A stretch of 64,000 nt of DNA from an uncultured Acetobacteraceae bacterium (GCA_964427005.1 CAYRTL010000007.1:23202-87201), one strand, 5' to 3'. Counted from the first letter of the stretch, positions 5,823-63,935 are shown. A program made the numbers and translations. Notes: generated by a model not told the origin, from the letters alone.

Positions 5823-5899
<77 letters not shown>

Positions 5900-5947
5900 A
5901 TGGAAGGCGGCCGTTTAGGCTGCCGGGATGGTGGCGTCAAGGACGCC

Positions 5948-6022: not shown

Positions 6023-6026
6023 GAGA

Positions 6027-6365: not shown

Positions 6366-6514
6366 TGGCGCAATCCTCTCGATCCGGTGAGTGGGTGATG
6401 CCGGCGCGAACGGCCGGTCAGAGCGGGCGACACTAAACGGCGCGATGTCTGCCTCGTCAATGACAGCAGAAAGGCTCGCTGGCGTTAACCAGCGAGCCTT
6501 TCGCTGCACTTGCT

Positions 6515-13009: not shown

Positions 13010-13972
13010 ATGGCTCAGACCAGCCGCAGCAAGGGAAAGGCTCGGCCCCGGTCCCGCTCTGGCAACGGGTCCCACGAAACGGCCGCCACGCCGCCATCGC
13101 GTGACTACAGCATTGCTGCGGTGGGCCGGGCTCTGGACCTTCTGGAGGCCCTCTCACGTATCGGTCCCGCCCCTCTGGCGGCTCTGGCAGACGAGGCACG
13201 GTGCACCCGCACGGCAGGGTTCCGGCTTCTACGCACGCTGGAGGCACGTGGGTTTGCCATCCAGGACGAAGCGCGCGGGATGTGGCGGCTCGGCGCCAGA
13301 TGGGGGGTGCTGGGACGTGCTGCCGCCGAACAGGGTGCCCTGGAAGCCACGGCGATGCCGTTCCTTGCCGCACTCGGCAAGACCAGCGGCGAGAACGTGT
13401 ACTTGCGGGTTCGCGACGGCCTGGAGTGCGAAACCATCGCCGTCTACCAAGCCGACCCCGGGCTCCGGGTATACAGCGAAGTTGGCAAGCGCCAGCCGCT
13501 GCATGCCGGCTCAAGCCGGATGCTGCTGGCCTATGCGCCGGAGGCGGTTCAGACCCAGGTCCTGGCACAGCGCCTGCCCCGGTTCACCCCGGCCACACGA
13601 ACCGACGCTGCCTGGATCGCAGCCGATCTTCAGCGCATCCGCAGCCGTGGCTACCTGCTTACCACGGATGAGGTTGTGGCTGGCGCGGCCACGGTCGCCG
13701 CCCCGGTTCGCGACGCGTCCGGACAAGTCGTCGCGGTGTTGTCCGTCAGCGCACCGACCATGCGGATGCGGCCTCCCAGGCCCCGCGCCCTACTACCGAT
13801 GGTCCTGGATGCCGCGACGAAACTGTCGCGAGCGCTGGGGGCCGCGGCGAGTGAAAACGCTGCGCGTAGCGCCACCAGCCCCCGCGTCGGCACGTCAGCT
13901 ACGGCCGGCGCCGATACGGGCGCGCTCGCGCCGGTTCTGGCCTCCCCCGGCCCTCACTCCATCTTTCGCTGA
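13010..13972 (+). CDS. IclR-family transcriptional regulator
   Basis: 320 aa. Winged-HTH region VGRALDLLEALSR...LADEARCTRTAGFRLLRTLEARGF followed by an IclR effector domain (PLHAGSSRMLLAY...AAPVRDASGQVVAVLSVSAP). Confidence 0.9.
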   Translation: MAQTSRSKGKARPRSRSGNGSHETAATPPSRDYSIAAVGRALDLLEALSRIGPAPLAALADEARCTRTAGFRLLRTLEARGFAIQDEARGMWRLGARWGVLGRAAAEQGALEATAMPFLAALGKTSGENVYLRVRDGLECETIAVYQADPGLRVYSEVGKRQPLHAGSSRMLLAYAPEAVQTQVLAQRLPRFTPATRTDAAWIAADLQRIRSRGYLLTTDEVVAGAATVAAPVRDASGQVVAVLSVSAPTMRMRPPRPRALLPMVLDAATKLSRALGAAASENAARSATSPRVGTSATAGADTGALAPVLASPGPHSIFR

Positions 13973-46992: not shown

Positions 46993-47922
46993 TCAGAACC
47001 CGACGCGATCGCCGCCTTTCAGTTTAAGGATTTCGCGCGCTTCCTTGGGGGTCGCTATCTCCAGGCTCAGCTCCTCCAGGATGCGGCGGATCTTAGACAC
47101 CTGCTCGGCATTCGATTTCGCCAGTTGCCCACGACCGATGTACAGGCTGTCTTCCAGGCCGACGCGCACATTGCCACCGAGAATGCCAGCCATCGTGGTG
47201 AAAGCCATCTGGTGCCTTCCCGCCGCCAGCACGGACCACACGTAAGCATCGCCGAACAACTTGTCCGCTGCCTCCTTCATGAACAGCAGATTGCGAGGAT
47301 CGGCGCCGATGCCGCCGAGAATGCCGAAGATGGTCTGCACGAACAGCGGAGGCTCGACGATTTTCTGATCGAGGCAATAGGCCAGATTGTATAGATGCCC
47401 GACATCGTAGCACTCGAATTCGAACCGTGTGCCGTGCGCCTTGCCCAAACGCTCGACGATACCAGCGATGTCGCGGAACGTATTGCGGAAAATATGATCG
47501 TCGGTGCGATCGAGATACGGCTTCTCCCAATCGTATTTCCACGTCTTTACCCGATCGCCGGCGCGCGAGATGTTGAAGTTCATGCTGCCCATATTGAGGC
47601 TGCACATTTCCGGCTTCGCTTGCAGCGGGGCAGCGAGCCGATCATCGAGCGTCATGTTGAGACCGCCACCCGTGGTGATGTTCACCACTGCATCGACATT
47701 CTGCTTGATCACCGGCAGAAAGCGCATGAAGACCGCCGGGTCCGGCGTAGGTGCGCCCGTCTCCGGATCGCGCGCGTGCAGATGGATGATCGCCGCACCC
47801 GCCTCTGCTGCCTCTATGGACGAACGCGCAATCTCCTCAGGCGTTATCGGCAGGTAGTCCGACATGCTGGGCGTGTGAATCGCGCCGGTAACGGCACAAC
47901 TGATGATCACCTTGCTGGGCAT
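46993..47922 (-). CDS. BKACE-family (3-keto-5-aminohexanoate cleavage enzyme-like, DUF849) protein
   Basis: 309 aa. VIISCAVTGAIHTPSMSDYLPITPEEIA...AGAAIIHLHARDPETG...NITTGG is the TIM-barrel BKACE signature, including Zn ligands. Confidence 0.88.
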   Translation of the reverse strand: MPSKVIISCAVTGAIHTPSMSDYLPITPEEIARSSIEAAEAGAAIIHLHARDPETGAPTPDPAVFMRFLPVIKQNVDAVVNITTGGGLNMTLDDRLAAPLQAKPEMCSLNMGSMNFNISRAGDRVKTWKYDWEKPYLDRTDDHIFRNTFRDIAGIVERLGKAHGTRFEFECYDVGHLYNLAYCLDQKIVEPPLFVQTIFGILGGIGADPRNLLFMKEAADKLFGDAYVWSVLAAGRHQMAFTTMAGILGGNVRVGLEDSLYIGRGQLAKSNAEQVSKIRRILEELSLEIATPKEAREILKLKGGDRVGF

Positions 47923-47984: not shown

Positions 47985-49016
47985 TCAGGGCTTCAGGATC
48001 ACCTTGGAGGCGGCACGCTGACGCGCCAACTCGAAGCCCTCAAGCCCGCGCTCCAGCGGCAAGCGATGCGTGATCATCGGCCGCAGCCCTTCTGACTCAC
48101 GACCCATCAGGTCCAGCACCCGATCCCACGTGGAGCGCGCACAGCTATGCGTGGCACGCAACTGATGGCGGGCACGCACGAAATCCGTCAGAGGGAGAGA
48201 AACCGGTCCAGGATGGATGCCAGCCACGACAAGCACGCCGGCCGTGCGCAAGACACCGAGACCATCTACGATGCTGGGCGGATAACCTGTCGCCTCGATC
48301 ACCACATCAGCCATGCGGCCGTTGGTCACCGATAACACCTGATCCCTCAGCGGCACGTCGGCCACATCGATGAGGTCATGGAACCCAAGCTGGCGCAGTA
48401 CATCGAACCGAGGCGCGTCGGCGCGACCCGCGACCAGCACCCGCCCCGCGCCTGCCGCGCGAGCAAACACCGCGATCGCCTGACCGATGGTGCCTGGTCC
48501 CATCACCAGCACCACATCGCCGAGGCCAACATCGCCCGTCAGCACGGCCTCGCACCCCACTCCGAGCGGCTCAGTCATCGCGCCGAGTTCGGTATCGACG
48601 GTCTCTGGCAACGGCAGACAGTTCGCCGCCGGCAGCGTCACATGACGAGCGAAGCCGCCGTCGCGGGTGAGTCCGATTGCCTGCCGGCATTGGCAGTTAC
48701 GCGTATCACTACGGGCACACGCGGGACAGGTGCCACATGCGATCATCGGCATCACCGTGACACGCGTCCCTTCAGCAAGGCTCACGCCAGGACCCTTCGC
48801 GATGACGCGGCCGGCGAACTCGTGCCCCATGGTTACCGGCAGATGAGATACCATGAAGCCATAACCGTCGGTCCATTCGTACGCATGGACATCCGAGCCG
48901 CAGATGCCAACAGACTCGATATGCAGCGTGACCTCACCGGCTGCCGGGGACTGCGGGTCTGCCGCGTCGCTGAATTCCAGACCGAAGCGCGGCTGTCGCT
49001 TCTGTAGAGCAAGCAT
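47985..49016 (-). CDS. Zinc-dependent medium-chain alcohol/polyol dehydrogenase
   Basis: ATG at 49016. GICGSDVHAY, catalytic Zn site MGHEFAG, structural Zn CGTCPACARSDTRNC, Rossmann GPGTIGQ. Confidence 0.9.
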   Translation of the reverse strand: MLALQKRQPRFGLEFSDAADPQSPAAGEVTLHIESVGICGSDVHAYEWTDGYGFMVSHLPVTMGHEFAGRVIAKGPGVSLAEGTRVTVMPMIACGTCPACARSDTRNCQCRQAIGLTRDGGFARHVTLPAANCLPLPETVDTELGAMTEPLGVGCEAVLTGDVGLGDVVLVMGPGTIGQAIAVFARAAGAGRVLVAGRADAPRFDVLRQLGFHDLIDVADVPLRDQVLSVTNGRMADVVIEATGYPPSIVDGLGVLRTAGVLVVAGIHPGPVSLPLTDFVRARHQLRATHSCARSTWDRVLDLMGRESEGLRPMITHRLPLERGLEGFELARQRAASKVILKP

Positions 49017-49196
49017 AGTGTGGCCCCCCATGTCGTGCTAGCATGGTGAGGTCAACCAGATTTTTCCGGCTAAATCCACCGTATGAACGGTCTCGCAATC
49101 ACCAGCCGCTGCGCCGTGTGACAGGCTGGGCAGGTGTCCCTTATACTAGGCTGGACGAAGTGGCCCCCCGTGGGGAACACTGAAAGCACTGGGTAA

Positions 49197-49273
49197 GTCC
49201 CCGTAGCTCAGCAGGATAGAGCACAGGATTCCTAATCCTGGGGTCGTGAGTTCGAATCTCGCCGGGGACGCCA
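49197..49273 (+). tRNA. tRNA-Arg (anticodon CCT)
   Basis: gtccccgtagctcagcaggatagagcacaggattcctaatcctggggtcgtgagttcgaatctcgccggggacgcca. Acceptor GTCCCCG/CGGGGAC, anticodon stem cagga/tcctg, loop ttCCTaa. Confidence 0.92.
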
Positions 49274-50046
49274 ATGAGTGCATCAATATAACATGGAATA
49301 AGTAACGAGCCGCCATCACGAATCACTTCGCGCCCGGGCTGCCTCGGACCTAAATTTCGGGCTGTGCGCTCTGATGAGACACCGCCAGCATGGCACCGGC
49401 AGGGACCACGGCTACCATCCCGATTAGAAGATTTTTCCATCCGCCAGTCTGCGACAGCATATTGCGCGGATGCAGACGGCAGTTTCAGCAGACCTAGCTT
49501 CGCTTTCGTAACGCGACGAAACGGAGGCACTGCTGCCATGCCTGGTCCAATGTCCAGACCGAACCGCTCGTCATGCCGCCGGAGCCTCACCCGGAGAGGC
49601 TTCTACGCGCCTACACGCGAGACGAGATCGAACTGAGCGGCGATGAGCCACCTGATCGGCGTTCTCACCCGAATGCGGTTCTTTGCTCCGACCAATGTCA
49701 TCGCGACAGCGGAGGCCGTGGTCAGGGCCATCACGGAGGCGCTGAGCAAGAGCCTCGATCCCGATCCGCTTCTGAAGTTCAGCGAGATCTGCAGGGCAGA
49801 CCTGGACAGCTTGCATCGAAACCAGGGCGTGAAGCGAGCGACTTCGGAACGATGCCGTTCTCCGCCTTCACTCAGGTGCCGTCGAGCTGGAGCGGCAGAC
49901 GATCGGATGATTGGTCAGGCGCCACACCTCGGATACATCCACGCCTTCTGGGTGCTGGGGCTGATCTCGCTGGCGGGTCGAACCTGCTATGGCACCACCT
50001 GCCCGCCTGACAGACGCAACGCCAGGGTCACGGGCGTTGATCTAGA

Positions 50047-50060
50047 TCAATGAGAGCAGC
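50047..50060. promoter_or_regulatory. FNR/FixK-type box, perfect palindrome TTGATCTAGATCAA
   Basis: Exact match to TTGAT-N4-ATCAA. Lies about 220-235 nt upstream of the phosphoketolase start, in an otherwise gene-free tract. Confidence 0.6.
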
Positions 50061-50280
50061 CGGGCTCTAGGCTCTGATTATTTGCCAGTCACCGGAAGTC
50101 ACGCGGCGATGCATTAAGAGCACGAACGGGCCGGCATCATCCGAGAGGGACCTGGGCTTCTGGGGCAAACGGACTACGCCACTAGATCACCGTGACGTGG
50201 AGGACCTGTGCGCCATCGGCCACGTGTCCCGCACATAGCGCAAGACGATAGTTTACCTAACTATGGAGGCGACCGTGACG

Positions 50281-52719
50281 ATGCTTGATCGCCAGTTGAT
50301 GACATCGCATTCAGATGAAGCTCTCAGCGCATATGGACCTGCTCGATCGACGATTACGGGTTCTCCCCTTGGCCACGACGAGCTGCGTAAGATCGACGCC
50401 TATTGGCGGGCCAGCCTGTATCTCTGCCTGGGCATGCTGTACCTCAAGGACAACCCCCTGCTCCGGTCGCCGCTCGAACTGAAGCACACGAAGCCGCGTC
50501 TGTTGGGCCACTGGGGCTCGGACCCTGGCCAATGCTTCACGTACGTCCACTTCAACCGGCTGATCAACAAATACGACCTCGACGCCATCTATGTTTCCGG
50601 ACCCGGACATGGAGCACCGGCGGTCCTGTCCCAGGCGTATCTGGAAGGCAGGTACTCTGAAGTCTATCCAGACAAGAGCGAAGACGTGCGGGGGATGCAA
50701 CGCTTCTTCAAGCAGTTCTCCTTTCCTGGTGGCATCGGTAGCCATGCCACCCCCGAAACGCCCGGCAGCATCCATGAAGGTGGCGAGTTGGGCTACAGCC
50801 TCTCGCACGCCTACGGAACGGTCTTCGATAACCCGGACCTCATTACTCTCGCGGTCGTGGGCGACGGAGAATCGGAAACCGGTCCACTGGCCACCAGTTG
50901 GCACAGCAACAAATTCCTGAATCCAATCATCGATGGCGCAGTGCTGCCGGTCCTGCATCTCAACGGCTACAAGATCAACAACCCGACCATCCTGGCTCGC
51001 ATCAGCCGAGACGAGTTGACGGCACTGTTCACCGGTTACGGATACACGCCGTATTTCGTCGAGGGCAGCGATGCGGACAGCATGCACCAGGCGATGGCGG
51101 CGACCCTGGAGCATTGCGTCCTGGAGATCCGCAAAATCCAGGAAGAGGCGCGCCGCACCGGCCGCGCCTTCCGGCCACGCTGGCCCGTGGTCATCCTGCG
51201 CAGTCCCAAAGGCTGGACAGCCCCGCGAGAGGTGGACGGACATTATCTCGAGGGGTTCTGGCGCGCGCACCAAGTCCCGCTGCCGGATATTGCCACCAAC
51301 CCTGGCCAATTGCGGCTGCTGAAAGAGTGGATGCGCAGCTACAAGCCCGAGGAGCTCTTCGACGAGGAGGGGCGCCTGCTGCCCGAGCTGAAGGCCCTGG
51401 CCCCCACGGGCAACCGGCGTATGAGCGCGAATCCGGTCGCTAACGGCGGTTTGTTGCGCCAGCCTTTGTCGATGCCGGACTTCCGCCAATTCGCCGTCGA
51501 AGTCGAGAAGTGCGGCGCGACCCTGGCGGGGAACGTGCCCGCCCTCGGCAATTTTCTGCGCGAGGTCATGCGGCTGAATATGCGGAACTTCCGCGTGTTC
51601 GGACCGGATGAGACGCAGTCCAACCGGCTGCAGGCTCTCTACGACGTCACCAAGAAAACATGGCTGGCGGAGTACTTTCCGGAGGATGCCGATGGGGGCA
51701 ACCTCGCTCCGGACGGTCGCGTCATGGAGATGCTCAGCGAGCACACCGTGGAAGGATGGCTCGAGGGGTACATCCTGAGCGGCCGGCACGGCTTCCTAAA
51801 CAGTTACGAGTCGTTCATCCACGTCATCGACTCGATGGTGAACCAGCACGCCAAGTGGCTCGACAAGTGCGATGAGCTGCCATGGCGGGCCCCGGTGTCG
51901 TCGCTCAACTTGCTGATCACCGCGCTGGTCTGGCGCCAGGACCACAACGGCTTCACGCACCAGGACCCCGGGTTTCTCGATCTTGTCGTCAACAAGAGTC
52001 CGAGCATCGTGCGCGTTTACCTGCCACCTGATGCCAACTGCCTGCTTTCGGTGGCCGATCATTGCCTGCGCAGCGTCAACTACATCAACGTCATTGTCGC
52101 GGACAAACAGGTCCATCTGCAATACCTCGACATGGACGCGGCGATCGTCCACTGCATGAAGGGCGCCACCATCTGGACCTGGGCGAGCAATGACGCTGAC
52201 GCCGAGCCAGACATCGTCATGGCGAGTTGCGGCGACGTGCCGACGATGGAGTCTCTGGCGGCCACCGCCCTGCTCCGGCAACACTTGCCCGAGCTCAAGG
52301 TCCGGTTCGTCAACGTGGTGGACCTGTTCAAGCTGGTGCCTCACACAGAGCATCCGCACGGGCTGACGGACCACGAGTTCGCAGCCCTTTTCACCCCGCA
52401 CAAGCCTGTGGTCTTCAACTTCCACGCCTATCCGTGGCTGATCCACCGCCTCACTTATCGCCGTCGCGGCCAGCACAACATTCACGTGCGCGGCTATAAG
52501 GAGCAGGGCAACATCAACACACCGCTGGAACTGGCCATTCGCAACCAGACTGACCGTTTCAGCCTCGCCATCGACGCGATCGATCGGGTCCCCCACCTGG
52601 GCGCCAGAGGGGCCGGTGTTCGCGAGGCTCTGCTGAACCAGCAGAGAACTTGCCTGAACCATGCCCACGAATTTGGCGTGGACCCGTTGAACATCACCAA
52701 CTGGGAGTGGCCGTTCTAA
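50281..52719 (+). CDS. xfp: Xylulose-5-phosphate/fructose-6-phosphate phosphoketolase
   Basis: About 812 aa. [33 protein letters not shown] and EGGELGY are phosphoketolase signature stretches. ATG at 50281 has a ggagg RBS. An alternative ATG lies at 50263. Confidence 0.96.
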
Positions 52720-52731
52720 GGAGATCTTTTG

Positions 52732-53790
52732 ATGACCGATGATCTCGAGAGCGTTGCACTGAAGCTGGTTGGCGACGGGAAGGGAATTCTCGCAGCGGAC
52801 GAGACCGTTCACACCTTGACCAGCCGGTTCGATACCCTCGGCATCCCGTCGACCGAGAAGACCCGGTGCGCCTACCGTGAAATGCTCTTTACCGCGGGCG
52901 TGGCCGAGTTCATCAGCGGTGTCATCCTGCAGGACGAAACCATCCGCCAGAACAGCTCTGACGGCACACCGCTCATCCAGCTTCTTTCGCAGCAAGGTAT
53001 CCTGCCGGGCATCAAAGTCGATTTAGGTGCGAAGCCGCTCGCCGGCGCCTCAGGCGAAACAGTTACCGAAGGCCTCGACGGCCTCCGGGATCGCCTGTCG
53101 GGGTACCGCGATATGGGCGCCCTCTTCGCGAAGTGGCGCGCGGTCATCCATGTCAGCGACACTCTGCCGAGCCAGACTTGCATCAGCGCGAATGCGCACG
53201 CGCTGGCGCGGTATGCAGCGCTCTGTCAAGAACAGCATCTCGTTCCTATTGTCGAGCCGGAAGTGCTGATGGACGGGTCGCATTCGATTGAACGCTGCGA
53301 GGAGGTCACCGGAAGAGTCCTTCATGGCGTGTTTTCTGCGCTCGATGCACAGAGGGTCTGGCTGGAGCACATGTTGCTGAAACCCAACATGGTCATTGCC
53401 GGCAAAGAGTGGCCTCATCCGGCTTCGGTTCAGGAGGTTGCTGTCGCCACATCGCGCTGCTTGCGTCGCCACGTTCCGGCGGCAGTGCCGGGTATTGTGT
53501 TCTTGTCAGGCGGCCAGGACGATCGCGCAGCCACGGTCCATTTGGATGCAATTAACCGGCTGCCCGGGAACAAGCCGTGGAAGATCAGTTTTTCCTATGG
53601 GCGTGCACTCCAGGACCACGCGCTGGAGACGTGGCATGGGCGAGACGAGAACTTAGCCGCGGCCCGGCAAGCGCTGCATCAACGCGCCCGTTGTAACAGC
53701 GCAGCCAGTCTCGGCAGGTACACAGATGAGATGGAAGCGTCGGTTAGCATTCCCAGTTCGCCGCATCGCCGTGAATGGCGCGATGACTGA
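52732..53790 (+). CDS. fba: Class I (Schiff-base, eukaryote-type) fructose-bisphosphate aldolase
   Basis: 352 aa, RBS aaggag. KGILAADETVHTLTSRF, IVEPEVLMDG, MLLKPNMV (Schiff-base Lys) and FLSGGQ. Confidence 0.92.
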   Translation: MTDDLESVALKLVGDGKGILAADETVHTLTSRFDTLGIPSTEKTRCAYREMLFTAGVAEFISGVILQDETIRQNSSDGTPLIQLLSQQGILPGIKVDLGAKPLAGASGETVTEGLDGLRDRLSGYRDMGALFAKWRAVIHVSDTLPSQTCISANAHALARYAALCQEQHLVPIVEPEVLMDGSHSIERCEEVTGRVLHGVFSALDAQRVWLEHMLLKPNMVIAGKEWPHPASVQEVAVATSRCLRRHVPAAVPGIVFLSGGQDDRAATVHLDAINRLPGNKPWKISFSYGRALQDHALETWHGRDENLAAARQALHQRARCNSAASLGRYTDEMEASVSIPSSPHRREWRDD

Positions 53791-53818
53791 TCGAGGCGCC
53801 ATCCGAGGGTGTCAAGGT

Positions 53819-53832
53819 TTGACTTAGATCAA
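53819..53832. promoter_or_regulatory. FNR/FixK-type box TTGACTTAGATCAA
   Basis: TTGAC-N4-ATCAA, 28 nt after the fba stop and 54 nt before the amylase ATG (53886). Confidence 0.6.
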
Positions 53833-53885
53833 TGCCAAGCTGCTGGGTAAGCCAGTACTTCGTCCAATTCAGGGGGAACAGCGCG

Positions 53886-55427
53886 ATGGCGATCAGATCA
53901 CTGTGGTGGCGCAGTAGATTGTCAGTGCTCCGGGCGATACGGCTTACGGTCGCCGCTGTTTCCTGTATCACTTTTACTCCATCGCTTCTCGCTTACGCCC
54001 AGGCTGGATTCGACGACGATCGGGTCATGCTCCAGGGCTTTTATTGGGAATCCAGCCGCCACGGATATCCGAAGTTCCTTCAGTTCGGTACTGAACACTG
54101 GTACGCGATCGTAGCGAGAGAAGCTCCCGCCATCCAAGCGGCTGGATTCGATCTTGTGTGGCTGCCTCCGCCCTCTTTCGCTGGTGGCTACAGCGCCGGC
54201 TACGACCCGAAGGAATACTTCGTGCTCGACAACAGCTACGGCAGCCAGCAGGAGCAGCGGGCTGCGCTCGAGTCCCTGCTGGCCGACGGCATCGAGCCGG
54301 TCGCCGATATTGTCATAAATCACCGAAACGGCAGCGAGAAATGGGCTGATTTCAAAAACCCGGCCTGGGGAACCTGGGCAATCACCCGCGATGACGAAGC
54401 ATTCACCAATCCAGCTTCAGAAGTATACAACACGCCCGTCGAGCTTCGTGGCGCACCAGAGGAGAGCCCCCAGTATCGCCCGTCGGGTGACTTTGCGTAC
54501 GCCTCATTCCGTGACATCGATCACACCAATACGCAAGTTCGACGCGACATCATTCGTTATCTTCTTCAGTTGAAGAGCCTCGGATATCGAGGTTGGCGAT
54601 ACGACATGGTACACGGCTACAACGCGAAGTGGATCGCCGTTTACAACAGAGCCACCGCACCGACATTCTCCGTGGGCGAATACGACTGGGATAAGCAGGC
54701 TGAGCAGCGAGGATGGGTATGGTCCACTGCCACAGGCCCGGGTGATCTCACGACTTCCAGCGACGTGTTCGATTTTTCGAGCTTTTTCACGTTGAAAGAC
54801 AACAAGGGACGTTATGCGGCTTGGTATGGCTTCGGCCAGGGCGTCGGTCTCGTCGGGGACAATACCGATGGCCATCCCTGGAAAAATCGGGCCGTCACCT
54901 TCATCGAGAACCATGATACCGGGTACCGTACGAATGAAGACGGCTCACCCGAGAATGGCCATAGCCAGGACAACTTCGCCAACGGATGGGAAGTAGAACA
55001 AGCTTACGCACAGATCCTGACTCACCCCGGAGTTCCGACCGTATTTTGGAAGCACTATTTCGACTGGGGGCCGGATCTTCAGAATAAGATTCACGCCCTC
55101 ATCAATGCGCGGAAGGTGGCAGGCGTCAACGCGGGCAGTACGCTCTATCTCCAGGACAATGCGCGGCAAAGCGGCGTCTATGCGGCCAGGGTTGTAGGTC
55201 GAAATGGCGACCTCTACGTCCGTATCGGGGGCGATGATGCGACGTGGCAACCCTCGAACTCCGGCTACGCGAACTATCGGGAGTATGCGGAGGGAGCTGG
55301 ATGGAAAGTCTGGGTCACTCTCCCGGGCAATCCTGATGTCCAGCATAAGCAGGCCCATGCGCCCTTCCCTGTTCCGACATACCGGCCGGCAGAGACAATC
55401 ACTGTTCCGGATAATTTGCTGAACTAG
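53886..55427 (+). CDS. GH13 alpha-amylase with N-terminal signal peptide
   Basis: ATG at 53886 (RBS ggggga). Signal-like MAIRSLWWRSRLSVLRAIRLTVAAVSCITFTPSLLAYA/QAG. GH13 regions DIVINH, GWRYDMVHGY, FSVGEYDW, FIENHDT. The VMLQGFYWES N-terminus resembles plant/archaeal-type amylases. Confidence 0.9.
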   Translation: MAIRSLWWRSRLSVLRAIRLTVAAVSCITFTPSLLAYAQAGFDDDRVMLQGFYWESSRHGYPKFLQFGTEHWYAIVAREAPAIQAAGFDLVWLPPPSFAGGYSAGYDPKEYFVLDNSYGSQQEQRAALESLLADGIEPVADIVINHRNGSEKWADFKNPAWGTWAITRDDEAFTNPASEVYNTPVELRGAPEESPQYRPSGDFAYASFRDIDHTNTQVRRDIIRYLLQLKSLGYRGWRYDMVHGYNAKWIAVYNRATAPTFSVGEYDWDKQAEQRGWVWSTATGPGDLTTSSDVFDFSSFFTLKDNKGRYAAWYGFGQGVGLVGDNTDGHPWKNRAVTFIENHDTGYRTNEDGSPENGHSQDNFANGWEVEQAYAQILTHPGVPTVFWKHYFDWGPDLQNKIHALINARKVAGVNAGSTLYLQDNARQSGVYAARVVGRNGDLYVRIGGDDATWQPSNSGYANYREYAEGAGWKVWVTLPGNPDVQHKQAHAPFPVPTYRPAETITVPDNLLN

Positions 55428-55500
55428 GCTCTGAGGCCTTTGGCAGTGAACGCAGCAGTCACGGTCGAAGGCCCACCAAGTCTGAGATCGGAGTAGCAAC

Positions 55501-56085
55501 GTGAACGTGTTCTTGATGCGACACGGCGAGACGGCGTGGAGCCTGAGTGGCAGGCACACCAGCACGACGGATCTTCCTTTGACCGATAACGGACGCCGGG
55601 TTGCGGAGAGGCTGCAGCCCGTGCTCGCGAGAGAAACGTTCGCCCGTGTCTTCGTCAGCCCAATGCGGCGCGCGCGAGAGACCTGCGAATTGGCGGGTCT
55701 CGGCAATGCAGCCGTCATCGACCCGGAACTGGCGGAATGGAACTACGGCGAATACGAGGGGCTGACGCCCAAACAGATCCACGAGAAGGTGCCCGGCTGG
55801 CTGATTTTCCGCGACGGTTGCCCGGGCGGCGAAATGCCAGAGCAAGTGAGTGCCAGAGTGGATCGAGTGATCGCCCGGGTCCGCGCTGTTGACGGCGATG
55901 TCGCTGTGTTTGCACACGGACACGTGCTCCGCGTCTTCGTCGCACGGTGGATCGGGCTTCCGGTAGGCGCCGCAGAGCATTTCTTGCTCGATACGGCCAC
56001 ATTGTCCGTTCTGTCCTACTACTACGAACTTCCCGCTGTCAGGGTCTGGAACGGATCCCTGCCGACACAGGATAAGCCGCGATGA
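55501..56085 (+). CDS. Histidine-phosphatase superfamily (phosphoglycerate-mutase-like) protein
   Basis: 194 aa, GTG start. The catalytic RHG motif is in FLMRHGET, with a second His in FAHGHVLRV. Its stop overlaps the glgP start (ATGA). Confidence 0.85.
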   Translation: MNVFLMRHGETAWSLSGRHTSTTDLPLTDNGRRVAERLQPVLARETFARVFVSPMRRARETCELAGLGNAAVIDPELAEWNYGEYEGLTPKQIHEKVPGWLIFRDGCPGGEMPEQVSARVDRVIARVRAVDGDVAVFAHGHVLRVFVARWIGLPVGAAEHFLLDTATLSVLSYYYELPAVRVWNGSLPTQDKPR

Positions 56086-58568
56086 ATGAAGCAAAGCAAC
56101 TCGTCTGTGATCAGGAGCTTCTTACGCGGTACGGCTGTGGCCCGATCCGGTTCTCCGGGCGCGACGACGCCTTGTACGAGCGGCACCTGCTGTTCGACGA
56201 TGTCGTCGCTCCGGAAGAGGCCGGGTCGCGCGAGCGCTTCGAGGCAGCCGCGCGTTCGGTGCGAGATGTGCTGTCGCAACGCTGGATACTGACGGACAGA
56301 ACCTATGACCGGGAGGATCCGAAGCGAATCTACTATCTGTCGATGGAGTTTCTGATCGGGCGGTCGCTCTCCAACAATATCACCAATCTTCTGCTCGATC
56401 CCTTCGCGAAGGAACTCGCCGCCCGGAGCAAGCTCGACCCGCTCGCCATCATCGAACAAGAACCCGATGCCGGGTTGGGCAACGGCGGGCTCGGTCGTTT
56501 GGCGGCCTGCTTTCTCGACTCTATGGCGACGATGCAGCTCCCGGCCATCGGCTACGGGTTGCGTTACGAGTACGGGATGTTCAAACAGTCCATCCAGAAC
56601 GGCTGGCAGCATGAAGAGCCAGACAACTGGCTGCGCCGCCAGGACCCATGGGAAGTGCCGCGTCCGGACGAGGCGGTGGAAGTCAGGCTTAACTGTTCGT
56701 TCGCGCTGCAAGACGGGCACCTGCACCCTGTGGCGGGCCGACCATCTTCGCTGATCGGCATACCGTTCGATCGACCGGTGGTCGGCTATGGCGGCAAGAC
56801 CATCAATACATTGCGCCTGTGGGGCGCCGCTGCGCCAGACTATTTCAATTTCCAGGAATTCAGCACTGGCGATTTTGTCGGCGCCCTGGCTGGGACTCTC
56901 GCAGCTGAATCGCTGACCCGAGTGCTGTACCCAGACGACTCCACAAACATGGGGCAAGGTCTGCGCTTCGGGCAGGAATATTTCCTCGTCGCCTGCTCAT
57001 TGGCCGACCTCGTCCGGCGCTTCCGTCGCAGCAATGCCGATTGGAGCACGTTCCCTGACAAGGTCGCGATTCAACTCAACGATACGCATCCGACGATGGC
57101 AGTGCCGGAGTTGATGCGGATCCTGCTCGACGAGGCGCAGGTCGGCTGGGACCAGGCCTGGGATATGACGCAGAGGACGTTGGCGTACACCAATCACACC
57201 CTGCTGCCCGAAGCGCTCGAGAAATGGCCGCTCGCGTGGTTCGAGATGATGCTGCCGCGCCATCTGGAAATCATCCTCGAGATCAATCGGCGTTTCCTCG
57301 GCGCCGTCCGGAAGCGCTATCCCGGCGACGAGGAGCGGGTGCGGCGCATGAGCCTGGTCGAGGAAGGCGCCGAGCGGAAGATTCGCATGGCCAACCTCGC
57401 CATCGTCGGCTCGCACAGCACCAATGGAGTCGCCGCGATCCACACCGACCTGCTGCGGAAAACTACGGTCAAAGACCTGGCTGAGATGTTTCCGGAGCGT
57501 TTCAACAACAAGACCAACGGCGTCACGCCGCGAAGATGGCTATTGCTGGCGAACCCTGCGCTCGCCGGCACAATCACCGCGGCGATCGGAGACGGCTGGC
57601 TGACCGATCTCAGCCGATTGCGCCAACTGACGCCTCTCGCCGAAGACAAATCCTTTCGTCAGGCGTTCCGCAACGCCACGCAGGAGGCCAAAACGCGCTT
57701 TGCCGATTGGCTCAAGACAACGACTGGACAGATCGTTGACCCCGCCAGCATTTTCGACTGTCAGATCAAGCGCATCCATGAATACAAGCGGCAACTGCTC
57801 AACGCGTTGCGCATAATCGTGCTGTATAACCGGCTGCGTGAGAACCCGGGCCTTGCGACGACGCCGCGCACGTTCTTCTTCGCTGGTAAGGCAGCGCCGG
57901 CCTATCGGCTGGCCAAGCTGATCATCAAATTCATCAATAACCTCGCCGGCACGATCGATGGCGATTCGATCGCGCGAGACCGTCTCAAGGTCGTGTTCCT
58001 CCCGGATTACTGCGTCTCGTTGGCCGAGAGGCTGATTCCGGGCGCCGAGGTCTCCAACCAGATCTCGACCGCCGGTTACGAGGCGAGCGGCACGAGCAAC
58101 ATGAAGTTCATGATGAATGGAGCGCTGACGATTGGCACACGCGACGGCGCGACGATTGAGATGGCGGAAGAGGCCGGCGAGGAGAACTTCTTCCTGTTCG
58201 GCTTGAGTGCCGATGAGGTGGCCGGCAGCCGCAGTTGGTACAATCCGCACTGGCATTACGACAACGAGCCGGAAACCCGCGCCGCGCTGGACCTGATCTT
58301 CTCCGATCATTTCAGCCGCTACGAGCCCGGCATTTTCGCTCCGCTGCGCGACACGCTGCTGACGCAGGGAGACCACTACATGCATCTGGCCGACCTCAAA
58401 TCCTATCTCGAGGCGGACCAGAAGCTGACCGCGTTGTACGCCGACCGCGACGCCTGGGCGCGCAAGGCGATCCTGAACGTGGCATGCAGCGGGAAGTTCT
58501 CCAGCGACCGCACGATCGCCCAATACGCCGCCGAGATCTGGCGAGCGAAGCCGTGTCCGGTGTCGTGA
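56082..58568 (+). CDS. glgP: Glycogen/maltodextrin phosphorylase
   Basis: 828 aa. [33 protein letters not shown] and the PLP lysine region [16 protein letters not shown]. Confidence 0.96.
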
Positions 58569-58581
58569 AAAGGATCAGTGC

Positions 58582-60261
58582 ATGACCATTTCGCCCCTCG
58601 CCGGCAAGCCGGCGCCCGCGGAGATGCTGGTCGATCTGGCCCGCCTCGAACGCGACTATTTCGAACGCAGGCCCGATCTCGACGACCACGAACAACGAGT
58701 CAGCTTCGGGACCAGCGGCCATCGCGGCTCATCGCTGCGCGGCTCCTTCAACGAAGCCCATATCATGGCCATTACCCAAGCCATCTGCGACTTCCGACTG
58801 GCGCACGGAATCAGTGGGCCGTTGTTCATGGGGCGGGATACGCACGCGCTCTCCGAGCCTGCCCAGCGCACAGCGCTCGAGGTTCTCGCCGGCAATCACG
58901 TGCACACCGTTATCCAGCAGAACGATGGGGTGACCCCGACGCCGGTCATCTCGCACGCAATCCTCGTCCACAATCGCGGGCGAAGCGAGCATCTCGCCGA
59001 CGGCATTGTCGTCACCCCTTCGCACAACCCGCCGGAGGATGGCGGGTTCAAGTACAATCCGACGCACGGAGGTCCGGCCGATGTCGACGTGACGCGGTGG
59101 ATCGAGAACCGAGCCAACGAATTGCTGCGCACTGCCAATGCCGGCGTGAAGCGGGTGGGTTTCGCCGCAGCCGTCAACGCCGACACGACGCAGCAGGAAG
59201 ACTTCCTCCTGCCCTACGTCAACGATCTACGCAACGTCGTCGATATGGAGGCGATCCGCGCCGCCCGCCTCAAGCTTGCCGTCGACCCTCTCGGCGGCGC
59301 CGCGGTGCATTATTGGGAACCGATCAACGCGATCTACAAGCTGGACATCGCCGTGACCAACCCGAAGGTTGACCCGACCTTTTCGTTCATGACCGTCGAT
59401 TACGACGGCAAGATCCGCATGGACTGCTCCAGCCCGTATGCGATGGCGCGGCTCGTCGAGCTCAAAAACCGCTACGACGTCGCCTTCGCCAACGACCCGG
59501 ATTCCGATCGGCACGGCATCGTCACACCGTCGTCAGGCCTGATGAACCCTAATCACTATCTGGCCGTGGCCATCCATTATCTGCTCACGCACCGTCCCGA
59601 GTGGCCCGCACGTGCCTTGGTTGGCAAGACGCTGGTTAGCAGCGGGATGATCGACAGGGTCGTGCAAAATCTCGGCCGCCGGCTTCAGGAGGTACCGGTG
59701 GGCTTCAAATGGTTTGTACCGGGACTCCTCAACGGCTCGTGCTGCTTCGGCGGCGAGGAGAGCGCCGGAGCGAGCTTCCTGCGACACGACGGCACAGTCT
59801 GGACGACTGACAAAGACGGCCCGATCATGGGTCTGCTGGCGGCCGAGATCACCGCCCGCACGGGGAAGGACCCGGGCGAGCATTACCGCAAGCTGACCGC
59901 ACAACTCGGAACTCCCCATTACACACGAATCGACGCGCCGGCGACGCCGGATCAGAAGGCCAGGTTGGCGAAGTTGTCCCCCGAAGACGTCAAGGAATCG
60001 CAGCTCGCGGGCGAGCCGATCATCGCCAAACTGTCACGCGCTCCGGCCAACGACGCTCCGATAGGTGGCATCAAGGTCGTGGCCGCGAGCGGTTGGTTTG
60101 CCGCCCGGCCGTCCGGCACGGAGAACCTGTACAAGATCTACGCAGAAAGTTTCATGGACCAATCGCACCTGGACGCCCTCGTCAGCGAAGCGCAGGCGAT
60201 AGTTAAAAATGCCCTGGAGATTCCCGAGGCAAGCCAGGCGCAAGATGGCGGAAAGCGATGA
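58582..60261 (+). CDS. pgm: Phosphoglucomutase (alpha-D-glucose phosphate-specific)
   Basis: 559 aa. The active-site phosphoserine loop [10 protein letters not shown], the metal loop [12 protein letters not shown], and GGEESAG. Confidence 0.95.
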
Positions 60262-61808
60262 TCGGGGGCAGCCAGCCTGCAGGTCCGTGCTTGTTCCCAG
60301 CGGAGTATCGCGCTTCGGGCCTGCTGTTGCATATCACCTCGTTGCCATCGCGCTATGGCATCGGTGATTTCGGCCCGGAAGCCGAGGCGTGGATCGATCG
60401 GCTTGCAGATTCCGGTCAAAGCTGGTGGCAGGCTCTGCCGCTTGGTCCAACGGGGTATTACAATTCGCCTTATTCACCACTGTCGTCCTTCGCCGCGAAC
60501 GAATTGCTGATCAGCCCGGCCCGCCTGATCGAGGACGGCCTGCTTCCGGCCGGTTCCGGCGAAGACCGGTTGTTTCCGGTGGCGGCTGTCGATTATGAGG
60601 CCGTCATTCCCTTCAAGCATCGTTTGGTTGAGCAAGCCTGGTGCAGCTTTTGTGCCGGCGTGCGGCCCGATCTGAAGCCTGACTACGAGCAGTTCTGCCA
60701 CGACCATCACAATTGGCTGGACGATTACGCATTGTTCCGCGCGTTGAGGGACCGTCACGATGGCGCGCATTATCTCGAGTGGCCGGAGGAATTGGTCGGG
60801 CGCGTTCCCGCAGCGATCGCGCAAGCTCGACAAGAGTTGCAAGGCCAGATTGATTCGGTTCGGTTTGCACAGTTCCTCCTTTTCCGCCAAGGAGAAGCCC
60901 TCAAGCGGCGCGCTCGCGCTAAGGGCGTGCGCCTGATCGGCGATCTGCCCTTCTTCGTTGCCGCCGACTCGAGCGATGTGTGGGCAAATCCAGATCTGTT
61001 TCTGCTGGATGATCGCCGTAGGCCGAAGGTTGTCGCTGGCGTCCCGCCGGACTATTTCGCCGCAGATGGCCAGTTGTGGGGCAACCCGGTGTATGACTGG
61101 GATGCTGTTCGCCGTACCGGTTATCGTTGGTGGATACAACGTGTGCGCACCCTGCTGGCGCATGTGGACGTGGTTCGCCTCGACCACTTTCGTGCGTTCG
61201 CAGCTGCGTGGCATGTGCCAGCGGACGCGGCGACCGCACGAGTTGGCGAATGGGTACCGGGGCCGGGCGAAGGCTTCTTTACCGCACTACAGAGCGAACT
61301 AGGCGCTCTACCTTTCATTGCCGAAGATTTGGGGCTGATCACGCCTGATGTGACTGCGCTGCGTGAGCAATTCGAATTGCCCGGACTCCGTGTCCTGCAA
61401 TTCGCCTTCGATGGTGATCCAGCCAATCCCCACCTACCTCAAAACTATGTGACAAACACAGTCGTGTATACAGGCACCCACGACAATCCCACGACGTGCG
61501 GCTGGTTCGAAGACCTGCCAGATCACCAGCGGCAGAATCTATGGAACTACGTGCGGCGCCGCGATGGCGGGAGCCGCGAGGCTGCATCCGCGCTGATGAG
61601 TTTGGCGTGGTCGTCCAACGCGGCGCTCGCGATGGCTCCGTTGCAGGACCTGCTTGCCTTGGGCAAGGAAGCGCGCATGAACGTGCCTGGCTTGGCCCAA
61701 GGCAATTGGCGATGGCGGTGCACGGAAGACTTGCTGAACTCATCCGCCTTCCGTTGGCTCAGTGACCTGACGAGATCCACAAGACGGTCGCACAACCAGC
61801 CGCTATGA
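60258..61808 (+). CDS. malQ: 4-alpha-glucanotransferase (amylomaltase)
   Basis: 516 aa, start overlaps the pgm stop. [34 protein letters not shown] and YTGTHDN are GH77 motifs. Confidence 0.93.
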
Positions 61809-63880
61809 ACTCTATCGAGACGACCGGTCGCAGCTCCCCAATTGGAGCGTCCGTGGGTTGCGGCGGCACCAACTTCAGCCTGTACTCCCGCTCCGCCATT
61901 GCTGTCGATTTGCTGTTCTTCGACAAGGCCGATGATAGCCGGCCCGCGCGCACGATCCGCATCGATCCCGCCACAAATCGCACCTACCACTATTGGCACG
62001 TATTTGTGCCGGATGTGCAGCCTGGGCAGATCTATGGCTACCGCGTGCACGGTCCTTTCGATCCCACCATGGGCATGCGATTTGATCCCTCCAAGGTTCT
62101 CCTCGACCCCTACGGCCGTGCCGTGGCGGTTCCGAGCGGCTACAGTCGCGATGCCGCATCTGGGACTGGCGACAACACCGCAACGGCCATGAAAAGCGTG
62201 GTCGTCAATTCAGGCGCGTACGATTGGGAAGGCGATAAACCGCTGAACACACCATCCTCGCGGACTATCATATACGAAATGCACGTGCGCGGATTCACGC
62301 GACATCCGAATTCGGGCGTGACCGAGTCGAAACTCGGCACGTTCGCCGGTTTGATCGAAAAGATCCCGTACCTGAAGGAGCTGGGCATCACCGCGGTCGA
62401 ACTGCTGCCGGTGTTCCAGTTCGATGCTCAGGACTGCCCTCCCGGACGGGTCAACTACTGGGGTTACTCGCCGGTCTCGTTCTTTGCGCCGCATCAGGCC
62501 TACAGCTCTCGTCCGGATCCGCTCAGTGCGGTGGACGAATTCCGCGACATGGTGAAGGCGCTGCATCGAGCGGGCATCGAGATCATCCTCGACGTCGTGT
62601 TCAACCACAGTGCGGAAGGTGACCACAGCGGGCCGACACTGAGCTTTCGCGGGCTGGACAACGACACCTACTATATTCTGCAAGATGACCGTTCACGGTA
62701 CGCCAACTACAGCGGTACCGGGAATACGCTGGATGCGAATCATCCAGTCGTTCGCCGCATGATTGTCGACAGCCTTCGATATTGGGTCGAGGAGATGCAT
62801 GTGGACGGTTTCCGGTTCGATCTCGCCGCGATTCTGTCGCGCGACGTATCGGGTCAGCCGATGCCAAACCCGCCGGTGCTGTGGGACATTGAATCTGATC
62901 CGCTCCTCGCGGGAACCAAGCTCTTCGCAGAAGCCTGGGACGCTGCTGGCCTGTATCAGGTCGGCAGCTTCATCGGGGACGCCTGGAAGGAGTGGAATGG
63001 ACAATTCCGTGACGACGTCCGCAGCTTTTTCCGTTGCGATGAGGGCACTGTCACGCGCATGGCCGATCGTTTGCTCGGCAGCCCCGATATCTATGGACAC
63101 AAGGAGCGAGAGCCAGAGCAAAGCATCAACTTCGTGACGTGTCACGACGGCTTCACTCTCAACGATCTGGTTTCATTCAACAGCAAACACAACGAGGCGA
63201 ATGGCGAGGGTAACCGAGACGGCTGGGACGATAATCGCAGCTGGAACTTCGGTATCGAGGGCCCAACGGACGATGCTATCGTGGAGAAGCTGCGCAACCG
63301 GCAAGTGAAGAATTTCCTGACCGTAACGATGCTGTCCGTCGGGATGCCCATGATTCTGATGGGCGATGAGGTACGACGCACGCAGAAGGGCAACAACAAT
63401 GCCTACTGCCAGGACAATGAGATCAGTTGGTTCGACTGGACGCTTGTCGCCACGCACTGGGACGTGCATCGCTTCGTGACGCTGCTCGCAACACGTCTCG
63501 AACTGAGCGACGTGGAGCACGAGCGCCTGCGTGTGCCGCTCAGTCAGCTGATCCGGGAGGCAAACAAGGAGTGGCACGGCGTCAAGCTTGGCCAGCCGGA
63601 CTGGCGCGCTTGCTCTCACAGCATTGCCATTACCGCTGAAGTCCCGAGATTGAAGCTGCTGGTTCATGTGATTCTGAATGCATATCGGGAGCCGCTGCAG
63701 TTCGAGCTCCCGTCGGTGCGCGGCGGAGCAGGCGGTCATTGGCTGCGATGGATCGACACCTCCCTCGAGCCGCCGAATGACATCGTTCCCTGGCAGACCG
63801 CGACTGCAGTGCCTGATGGCTCCTATCGTGCGGAGGCACGTTCCGTTGTGGTACTCGGCGCATGGTTGGGAGCCGGATAA
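61805..63880 (+). CDS. glgX: Glycogen debranching enzyme GlgX
   Basis: 691 aa, start overlaps the malQ stop. YWGYSPVSFFAP, ILDVVFNH, VDGFRFDLA, AEAWD and FVTCHDGFTLND. Confidence 0.95.
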   Translation: MNSIETTGRSSPIGASVGCGGTNFSLYSRSAIAVDLLFFDKADDSRPARTIRIDPATNRTYHYWHVFVPDVQPGQIYGYRVHGPFDPTMGMRFDPSKVLLDPYGRAVAVPSGYSRDAASGTGDNTATAMKSVVVNSGAYDWEGDKPLNTPSSRTIIYEMHVRGFTRHPNSGVTESKLGTFAGLIEKIPYLKELGITAVELLPVFQFDAQDCPPGRVNYWGYSPVSFFAPHQAYSSRPDPLSAVDEFRDMVKALHRAGIEIILDVVFNHSAEGDHSGPTLSFRGLDNDTYYILQDDRSRYANYSGTGNTLDANHPVVRRMIVDSLRYWVEEMHVDGFRFDLAAILSRDVSGQPMPNPPVLWDIESDPLLAGTKLFAEAWDAAGLYQVGSFIGDAWKEWNGQFRDDVRSFFRCDEGTVTRMADRLLGSPDIYGHKEREPEQSINFVTCHDGFTLNDLVSFNSKHNEANGEGNRDGWDDNRSWNFGIEGPTDDAIVEKLRNRQVKNFLTVTMLSVGMPMILMGDEVRRTQKGNNNAYCQDNEISWFDWTLVATHWDVHRFVTLLATRLELSDVEHERLRVPLSQLIREANKEWHGVKLGQPDWRACSHSIAITAEVPRLKLLVHVILNAYREPLQFELPSVRGGAGGHWLRWIDTSLEPPNDIVPWQTATAVPDGSYRAEARSVVVLGAWLGAG

Positions 63881-63921
63881 GAGGCACTTTTGCCCCTGAG
63901 TTGACCGTCGATGCGAGCGAG

Positions 63922-63935
63922 TTGACCTAAATCAA
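63922..63935. promoter_or_regulatory. FNR/FixK-type box TTGACCTAAATCAA
   Basis: TTGAC-N4-ATCAA, 41 nt after the glgX stop. Its target gene lies beyond the right window edge or on the minus strand. Confidence 0.5.

Follow-up and report, generated by a model that had tools for sequence, protein, structure and literature searches.

A glycogen-degrading gene cluster joined to phosphoketolase and to FNR/FixK-type boxes in an uncultured Acetobacteraceae bacterium: a candidate module for ATP supply at low oxygen

Introduction

How does a bacterium that relies on respiration maintain its energy supply when oxygen is lacking, and which substrate does it draw on? The question is raised by a block of eight genes in a 64,000-nucleotide (nt) stretch of DNA from an uncultured Acetobacteraceae bacterium (GCA_964427005.1, CAYRTL010000007.1:23202-87201), which is referred to as the window. 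The block joins genes for the breakdown of alpha-glucan to a phosphoketolase gene (xfp) and carries three boxes of the FNR/FixK type. Regulators of the FNR/FixK/Anr type are typically active at low oxygen and recognise TTGAT-N4-ATCAA. An earlier note, written from the sequence alone, had proposed a low-oxygen route from glycogen to acetyl-phosphate.

The energy upkeep of obligately respiratory soil bacteria without oxygen is partly understood, and phosphoketolase together with acetate kinase under FixK/FNR control is a known piece of it. The locus suggests a substrate source for that piece, namely stored or external alpha-glucan. On balance, the evidence favours reading the locus as an operon for alpha-glucan catabolism that is joined to a phosphoketolase-aldolase-phosphatase module and, in this lineage, has come under FNR/FixK/Anr-type boxes.

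Gene content of the cluster

Gene identities were obtained from Pfam and NCBIfam profile searches of the open reading frames (ORFs) of the window, with the curated NCBIfam cut-offs applied. The eight genes, all co-directional, are the following.

50281..52719, + strand: xfp, xylulose-5-phosphate/fructose-6-phosphate phosphoketolase; the ORF opens at 50263; the likely start, ATG at 50281, has GGAGG 10 nt ahead of it
52729..53790, + strand: fba (fbaI), class I fructose-bisphosphate aldolase; NF033379, 484.7 bits against a cut-off of 250; 9 nt past xfp
53886..55427, + strand: GH13 alpha-amylase; Pfam Alpha-amylase and Alpha-amyl_C2; the ORF opens at 53832, likely start 53886
55501..56085, + strand: hisP, branch 1 histidine phosphatase, Rv3214/SHB17 subfamily; Pfam His_Phos_1, 6.5e-49
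56082..58568, + strand: glgP, alpha-glucan (glycogen) phosphorylase; TIGR02093, 1059.8 bits against 552.9
58582..60261, + strand: pgm, phosphoglucomutase; TIGR01132, 901.5 bits against 778
60258..61808, + strand: malQ, 4-alpha-glucanotransferase; NF011080, 656.8 bits against 477
61805..63880, + strand: glgX, glycogen debranching enzyme; TIGR02100, 713.3 bits against 640.9

For six of the eight genes, the best NCBIfam model exceeds its curated cut-off, and this includes all four proteins of the glycogen catabolic set (glgP, glgX, malQ and pgm). The amylase and the histidine phosphatase stay below every NCBIfam cut-off, and their identity rests on Pfam domains. The xfp product reaches 1495.5 bits with NF003617 (cut-off 1143) and is full-length for Pfam XFP_N, XFP and XFP_C (1e-174, 3e-84 and 8e-87); with all three domains present and the score above the curated cut-off, it is a predicted phosphoketolase. 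The amylase start at 53886 is the one chosen by gene callers on sibling contigs; it gives a product of 513 amino acids (aa), the N-terminus of which resembles a signal peptide.

Start and stop codons overlap as ATGA between hisP and glgP (56082), pgm and malQ (60258), and malQ and glgX (61805). In Pfam scans, no sizeable ORF of the window matched a domain of the biosynthetic genes glgA, glgB or glgC. The earlier note had named the same eight genes, the same three overlaps and the same absence, and all of this was borne out. The content also fits a route from glycogen through glucose-1-phosphate and fructose-6-phosphate to acetyl-phosphate.

The FNR/FixK-type boxes

Three 14-mers in the block resemble the recognition sequence of FNR/FixK-type regulators.

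50037..50050: box 1, TTGATCTAGATCAA, a perfect palindrome; centred 237.5 nt before the ATG that probably starts xfp
53819..53832: box 2, TTGACTTAGATCAA; centred 60.5 nt before the amylase start codon (53886), on the left border of the inserted amylase segment
63922..63935: box 3, TTGACCTAAATCAA; 42 nt past the glgX stop

A scan for TTGA-N6-TCAA returned these three sites and no other match in the 64 kb; the earlier note, too, had noticed no other full match in the intergenic regions. Boxes 2 and 3 lie where the earlier note placed them; its first box starts at 50037 and not at 50047, a shift of 10 nt. Box 1 agrees with TTGAT-N4-ATCAA throughout. Boxes 2 and 3 each carry a single T-to-C change at position 5, and the same change occurs in verified FnrL and FixK2 sites. 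The extended form TTGAYYTARATCAATG is common to all three, and it is all that they share, as no longer repeats linking the boxes were found.

The number expected by chance was gauged by 100 shuffles. For TTGAY-N4-RTCAA, a symmetric pattern set a priori and independent of the matches seen, the window holds three matches against 0.15 expected, and none of the 100 shuffles reached three. With the loosest pattern, 0.51 were expected and one shuffle in 100 reached three. Moreover, all three boxes are in non-coding DNA, which makes up roughly 12% of the window, and within a single 14-kb block. As sequence matches, the three boxes are thus non-random and conform to the FNR/FixK consensus, which upholds the earlier assignment and makes them predicted sites for such regulators.

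Genes served by each box

The earlier note saw the three boxes as punctuating one unit. This did not hold, since box 2 belongs to an amylase cassette and box 3, as seen in the most closely related syntenic locus (designated L173), stands before the operon that follows. Box 1 heads xfp-fba and probably the remainder of the cluster too.

Alignment of the fba-hisP junction with related loci shows the amylase gene and box 2 as an insertion that follows the fba stop codon and precedes the conserved leader of hisP. The amylase has no counterpart in the syntenic loci L081, L087 and L173, and its GC content (57%; 65% at third codon positions) is the lowest of the cluster. Its 80 homologues, 53-80% identical and spread over many phyla, stand alone, with no synteny with xfp or glg genes. 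From this solitary occurrence, the amylase is judged to be a mobile, separately inherited gene. Box 2 and the amylase are accordingly read from the alignment as a cassette inserted in the ancestral fba-hisP junction, with box 2 serving the amylase. The distance of box 2 from the amylase start resembles the geometry of a class II FNR promoter, and box 2 is present as well in Logan contigs of the same population. A scan of genome contigs that used the amylase as a synteny anchor yielded no syntenic locus, owing to the solitary position of the homologues. The insertion brings its own box and illustrates how an existing regulon can take in a gene acquired later.

The closest amylase homologue (80% identical), in an Acetobacteraceae metagenome-assembled genome (L001), has a perfect CRP-type palindrome, TGTGACCGGCGTCACA, at 9909-9924, about 85 nt before the gene, and no FNR-type box. 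The same gene may therefore come under different branches of the CRP/FNR family depending on the host.

Box 3 is most probably a promoter element of the following operon, which starts past the end of the window. This assignment follows from L173, where an orthologous box, TTGACCTAGATCAA, lies before MlaE-PFK-GH65 genes. The L173 box sits inside a conserved block in which 26 of 27 aligned columns are identical, from GAGTTGACC to GAGCACG. The genes past it are MlaE, ABC_tran, MlaD, ABC_trans_aux, PFK and GH65.

Scans for sigma-70 promoters and terminators gave counts at or below the shuffle expectation and were uninformative. The segment from box 1 to xfp was also considered as a structured leader or a riboswitch, and this was set aside; the folding z-score is 0.32, and the Rfam matches are tRNAs only.

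The cluster in related genomes

About 100 related loci (L-numbers) were collected through homologues of glgP, glgX and xfp and through a metagenome scan with the phosphatase. In the metagenome loci, the gene directly upstream of hisP is xfp in 31 of 62 cases and fba in 6 of 62, and the next gene downstream is glgP in 21 of 61. The order xfp-fbaI-hisP is found in L081, L087 and L173, in Lichenicola and in Polymorphobacter; xfp, the class I aldolase and hisP are a conserved triad.

The earlier note had proposed a comparison of xfp-fba-glgP-pgm-malQ-glgX synteny. The core does recur, and L173 is its closest form, with the order xfp-fba-hisP-glgP-pgm-(rpiB, tkt remnant)-malQ-glgX and no amylase. 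The arrangements vary, and many relatives are box-free. L081, which does have a box, has the order small ORF-glgX-xfp-fba-hisP-glgP-pgm-malQ, which L087 repeats until its contig ends inside pgm, and L082 adds PPK2 to an L081-like order. A shorter arrangement, glgX-glgP-xfp, occurs in L083. L174 reads xfp-hisP-ackA-glgP and L175 ATP synthase-PPK2-ackA-xfp-hisP-glgP. Among 112 co-directional neighbouring ORFs, the recurrent families are HAD hydrolases (10), GH65 (8), acetate kinase (4), transaldolase (3) and RpiB (3). Apparent frameshifts split genes in the long-read assemblies L081, L086, L087 and L173, which makes gene calls there unreliable. In L081, xfp is interrupted by an insertion sequence element at 5752-7095, with a DDE_Tnp_1_4 transposase on the opposite strand. 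Phosphatase homologues from Burkholderia and Methylotuvimicrobium (42-49% identity) lie in unrelated contexts and were set aside.

Among cultured carriers, the Acetobacteraceae isolate Lichenicola cladoniae has tpiA-glk-xfp-fbaI-hisP, with ORFs overlapping or nearly abutting. On plasmid p29362-2 of Polymorphobacter megasporae (L180/L181, record 299759-331090), a co-directional supercluster runs cydB, P-type H+-ATPase, PPK2, PRC-barrel, tkt, zwf, rpe, ackA, gnd, tal, pgi, rpiA, xfp, fbaI, hisP, a giant glucoamylase-family protein and pgm. It resembles a complete energy-maintenance kit, combining substrate-level ATP synthesis with upkeep of the proton motive force. In more distant lineages (L175, 1061-13087; L174, 3819-17187), the xfp-hisP-glgP core comes with ackA and PPK2 or PPK1. 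A complete operon for F-type ATP synthase, or else P-type ATPases, accompanies it there, which again ties the module to energy homeostasis.

In the cultured carriers at L176 (10745-15981, Sinorhizobium meliloti pSymA) and L177 (12410-18555, Lichenicola), the gene pair xfp-hisP precedes genes for very large proteins annotated as glycosyl transferase or glucoamylase family, where glgP would otherwise be expected. The phosphoketolase module may thus also be supplied from other glucans, beta-1,2-glucan or a similar one being a possibility.

Boxes at the heads of related clusters

A total of 24 independent related cluster heads, each with 800 bp of upstream sequence, was screened for boxes. A perfect TTGAT-N4-ATCAA stands at four of them (L081/L086, L105, L107 and L150) and a one-mismatch box at three more; the remaining 17 have none even with one mismatch allowed. 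Perfect boxes are absent from the other approximately 400 kb of those related loci, and 1.23 Mb of unrelated amylase loci contains one. The L107 box and box 2 are letter-for-letter identical to R. sphaeroides FnrL sites verified by chromatin immunoprecipitation, box 2 to that of RSP2395 (PMC2908626).

The L081/L086 box lies in an intergenic segment of about 26 nt that is a gap at L087 in the alignment, and about 61.5 nt separate its centre from the conserved start codon of the small ORF that opens the cluster, a geometry like that of box 2. A 1208-aa fusion call in L086 had raised the suspicion that this box lay inside the coding region of a resistance-nodulation-division (RND) pump; the alignment puts it after the pump stop. 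On S. meliloti pSymA, TTGATCTCCGTCAA lies upstream of CBS-adhP-xfp-hisP, where the phosphatase is 73% identical to hisP. As many close relatives carry no box, the wiring, so far as it can be read from predicted sites, is lineage-specific and confined to some lineages.

Between the perfect box of L107 (1331) and its glgX lies a 133-aa ORF (1412-1813). By eye, its C-terminus is like an OmpR-type winged helix (Trans_reg_C), without a receiver domain. The product may be a cluster-specific regulator.

The histidine phosphatase and a putative phosphoketolase cycle

The yeast enzyme SHB17 is a sedoheptulose-1,7-bisphosphatase (SBPase). The solved sequences closest to hisP are Rv3214 (2a6p, 5e-39) and then SHB17/YKR043C (3f3k, 3lg2 and 3ll4, 2.5e-27 to 8.5e-26), with CobC/PhoE-type enzymes far behind. 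The blocks RHG(E/Q)T.WS, EW.YG.YEG, RDGC..GE and FAHGH.LR are common to hisP, Rv3214 and SHB17, which places the three in the same subfamily by sequence. In contrast to SHB17, hisP is short (194 aa against 271 aa) and lacks the SHB17 insertions. Its product is a candidate sugar-bisphosphate phosphatase, with sedoheptulose-1,7-bisphosphate as the substrate in question. A single-sequence AlphaFold model of hisP had a pLDDT of 42.6 and was not used.

Side by side, Xfp, the class I aldolase and the SHB17-like phosphatase would supply the three activities that a carbon-conserving phosphoketolase cycle needs in addition to housekeeping enzymes. Of the cycle enzymes, the window contains only Xfp, FbaI and the candidate SBPase. 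Others are clustered with the triad in relatives: rpiB and the tkt remnant in L173, tpiA in Lichenicola, and ackA in L174 and L175. Polymorphobacter supplies tkt, rpe, tal, rpiA, pgi and ackA beside the triad.

The aldolase and SBPase branch suggests a route to full carbon conservation. A natural phosphoketolase cycle dependent on sedoheptulose-1,7-bisphosphate, fused to glycogen phosphorolysis under an FNR/FixK-type switch and serving anoxic survival, is a bolder proposal; judged from the gene content, it is conceivable and tentative, and its truth would be something of a surprise. If true, a pathway like non-oxidative glycolysis (NOG) or SCTPK, which engineers have built, would already exist in nature as a compact operon.

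Proposed mechanism

The function that currently appears most likely, with fair but limited assurance, is the supply of ATP from stored glucan (or, via the amylase, external glucan) through acetyl-phosphate when respiration fails. Under this proposal, a regulator bound to box 1 would switch on xfp-fba, with probable read-through to hisP-glgP-pgm-malQ-glgX. Binding at box 2 would turn on the inserted gene for the putatively periplasmic amylase, and binding at box 3 the next operon, which in the closest relative encodes a Mla-type ATP-binding cassette (ABC) transporter, a phosphofructokinase (pfk) and a GH65 phosphorylase.

GlgP, GlgX and MalQ would then phosphorolyse glycogen to glucose-1-phosphate, which Pgm and the housekeeping Pgi would convert to fructose-6-phosphate. 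Xfp would cleave fructose-6-phosphate to acetyl-phosphate and erythrose-4-phosphate, and xylulose-5-phosphate to acetyl-phosphate and glyceraldehyde-3-phosphate. The class I aldolase would condense erythrose-4-phosphate with dihydroxyacetone phosphate to sedoheptulose-1,7-bisphosphate, and the SHB17-like histidine phosphatase would hydrolyse this to sedoheptulose-7-phosphate. Transketolase, Rpi and Rpe would regenerate xylulose-5-phosphate. Each glucosyl unit would yield at most three acetyl-phosphates with no net redox change, and an acetate kinase encoded elsewhere would transfer the phosphate to ATP. For this organism we infer the dependence on oxygen, the limits of the operons, the substrate of the phosphatase and the stoichiometry of the cycle.

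If the bolder proposal of a natural cycle is true, respiratory bacteria could ferment stored glycogen to acetate in a redox-neutral manner, gain about 3 ATP at most from each glucosyl unit and in this way survive anoxia. The operon occurs widely, both in soil metagenomes and on plasmids of cultured alphaproteobacteria.

Weighing the interpretation

Several observations weigh against a low-oxygen glycogen-to-acetyl-phosphate operon. In the 64-kb window, no ackA or pta, no tkt, rpi, rpe or tpi, and, in Pfam scans of sizeable ORFs, no gene for a CRP/FNR-family regulator was found. The 237 nt between box 1 and the xfp start imply a long leader, and no recognisable -10 element or terminator delimits the units. 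With TTGAT-N4-ATCAA and up to one mismatch, the three matches compare with 1.16 expected and nine of 100 shuffles do as well, a result that is marginal taken alone. No FNR-type box was found in L082, L083-85, L087, L103, L104, L115, L131 and L151, nor in the Lichenicola and Polymorphobacter clusters. The flanks of the L173 box 3 are 85% identical overall, and conservation of the box is not clearly above them; it is consistent with function, yet there is no sharp footprint. As regards the phosphatase, the 2a6p entry of the PDB names Rv3214, the closest solved relative, merely as a possible phosphoglycerate mutase.

The nature of the signal is one point on which a different explanation has to be considered. 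The boxes could be functional for a CRP/FNR-family protein that senses nitric oxide (Dnr/NnrR type), redox or the carbon and energy status, and the cluster would then belong to a starvation or nitrosative response. FNR, FixK and DNR recognise near-identical sequences (PMC2908626), so that the sequence alone cannot separate them, and the CRP-type palindrome before the L001 amylase, in place of an FNR box, goes in the same direction. Likewise, the association of the module with PPK2, PPK1, a P-type H+-ATPase or an extra ATP synthase in relatives fits general energy starvation. However, every experimentally characterised case of a boxed xfp that was found is FixK- and low-oxygen-dependent. The Polymorphobacter supercluster adjoins cytochrome bd oxidase genes, and the lxa locus of Burkholderia cenocepacia, which is similar in content, is activated by low oxygen (PMC3721108). 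A signal other than oxygen is therefore regarded as unlikely, though it deserves to be kept in mind.

The fate of acetyl-phosphate is a second point. The cluster could be a carbon-conserving route from storage glucan to acetyl-CoA, for the synthesis of polyhydroxybutyrate or lipid and for regrowth, or a stress or desiccation module, with the FNR boxes as one input among several. Genes for PhaC, acyl-CoA dehydrogenase, 3-hydroxyacyl-CoA dehydrogenase and DUF3141 proteins lie beside related clusters, and the S. meliloti region has DUF3141-pta and fabI. The missing ackA in the window would suit this explanation, as would the cultured carriers, Lichenicola and Polymorphobacter, which are lichen-derived and box-free. 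Nevertheless, ackA is a recurrent acetyl-phosphate-consuming neighbour (4 of 112 neighbouring ORFs, including that of L175, and also in L174 and Polymorphobacter), and FNR/FixK-type boxes recur at cluster heads. This biosynthetic or stress role is given the same low probability as a different signal.

Finally, the three 14-mers could match the consensus by chance or be relics without a function, with the cluster under some other control. This is very improbable, for the one-mismatch count, the box-free close relatives and the distance of box 1 from xfp are outweighed by the enrichment of the a-priori pattern, the confinement of all three boxes to non-coding DNA, their shared TTGAYYTARATCAATG, the perfect boxes at four independent related heads with none elsewhere in 400 kb, and the conservation of box 3 in L173. 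Supply of ATP from alpha-glucan through acetyl-phosphate at low oxygen thus remains the favoured explanation.

Flanking genes and other features of the window

Four features lie to the left of box 1.

46993-47922, - strand: BKACE-family enzyme (Pfam); divergent, upstream of the cluster
47985-49031, - strand: Zn-dependent alcohol dehydrogenase (Zn-ADH; Pfam); divergent, upstream of the cluster
49197-49273, + strand: tRNA-Arg(CCT) gene, about 760 bp upstream of box 1
49643..49850, + strand: truncated small ORF, C-terminal half of the 170-aa ORF that heads L082 (BLASTP E = 2e-10, 36% identity over 83 residues)

The tRNA gene is followed by a stretch of about 1 kb without a confident gene and by the truncated small ORF. 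The latter has no Pfam match; its counterpart in L082 precedes glgX at the head of the cluster. The genomic contexts of related clusters differ: some are preceded by an RND pump or an ABC transporter, and others are carried by plasmids. Possibly, therefore, the module is mobile and owes its place beside the tRNA gene to an insertion; within the window, no direct repeat was found to flank it.

A Zn-ADH also adjoins xfp-hisP on S. meliloti pSymA (adhP), and one is induced in the lxa locus of B. cenocepacia (PMC3721108). The start of the Zn-ADH gene in the window is about 1 kb from box 1, which makes direct control by this box doubtful.

Pfam scans of the other sizeable ORFs of the window showed ordinary chromosomal genes, among them nuo subunits, clpP, lon, accA, an xerD-like integrase, aroK/B and cobS/T; further assignments comprise folD, an RND pump, a major facilitator superfamily transporter, the BKACE enzyme and the Zn-ADH. 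An 886-aa ORF with high GC at third codon positions (13976-16636, - strand) has a weak, sub-threshold pentapeptide-repeat match and no other Pfam domain, and adjoins an IclR-family regulator gene (13010-13972).

Comparison with known systems

Phosphoketolase-based routes to acetyl-phosphate are known from several organisms. The bifid shunt differs from the cycle considered here in its use of transaldolase instead of sedoheptulose-1,7-bisphosphate. In cyanobacteria, phosphoketolase converts glycogen-derived sugar phosphates to acetyl-phosphate and acetate in the dark or in anoxia when ATP is low. To our knowledge, the cyanobacterial gene is not clustered with glgP or glgX, and the enzyme is under allosteric control by ATP and not behind an FNR-type box. 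The engineered SCTPK pathway combines phosphoketolase, an aldolase for fructose- and sedoheptulose-bisphosphate, an SBPase and pentose-phosphate rearrangement to form acetyl-phosphate without loss of CO2 (PMC10468489). The enzyme set suggested by the present cluster is alike; SCTPK uses a cyanobacterial GlpX-type SBPase, whereas the candidate SBPase here is a histidine phosphatase.

As for low-oxygen gene islands in aerobes, the lxa locus of B. cenocepacia is activated at low oxygen, is needed for anoxic persistence and has an Anr/FNR-like TGA-N6-TCA motif (PMC3721108). It comprises genes for acetate kinase, phosphate acetyltransferase, Zn-ADH, a phosphofructokinase-family kinase, a cation ATPase and ABC-transporter proteins (PMC3721108). 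The likeness lies in gene content: ABC-transporter genes and pfk also occur in the L173 operon after box 3, and ackA and P-type ATPases in relatives. In contrast, neither phosphoketolase (the word occurs 0 times) nor glycogen genes are reported for lxa, which belongs to another phylum-level lineage (PMC3721108).

The closest regulatory precedents are found in Rhodopseudomonas and Bradyrhizobium. Dufour et al. predicted a conserved FixK regulon with a putative phosphoketolase, a Zn-ADH, a CBS protein and ABC-transporter subunits, and RPA1673 is FixK-dependent in R. palustris (PMC2908626). In R. palustris TIE-1, expression of Rpal_1869 rose about 10-fold in one anaerobic condition and 1.4-2.4-fold in most others, and was lower in one; it fell 9.4-fold in a fixK mutant in one tested condition (PMC3050613). 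The xfp-ackA operon of B. diazoefficiens, bll2518-bll2517, has a FixK2 box and is 10-fold down in a fixK2 mutant (PMC9104804), and its phosphoketolase protein is induced under microoxia (PMC6515984). Since FixK control of phosphoketolase has already been described, the regulatory idea is not new, and the earlier suggestion of an undescribed regulon fails in this part (PMC9104804, PMC3050613, PMC2908626). The linkage to glycogen genes is the part that stands; in the literature searched, the coverage of which is incomplete, no description of an xfp-glgP cluster or of an xfp-histidine phosphatase pair was found.

In the Bradyrhizobium and Rhodopseudomonas systems, as here, xfp lies behind a TTGA-N6-TCAA box, and a Zn-ADH, a predicted member of their FixK regulon, adjoins the present cluster too. 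Their regulation is microoxia-induced and FixK-dependent; that of the present cluster we infer from a box read in the sequence. Moreover, xfp is paired with ackA in Bradyrhizobium, whereas its partners here are a class I aldolase, an SHB17-like phosphatase, glgP-pgm-malQ-glgX and an amylase with its own box. The regulon is thus a known one, and the joining of glycogen genes to an xfp behind FixK/FNR-type boxes is a new architecture.

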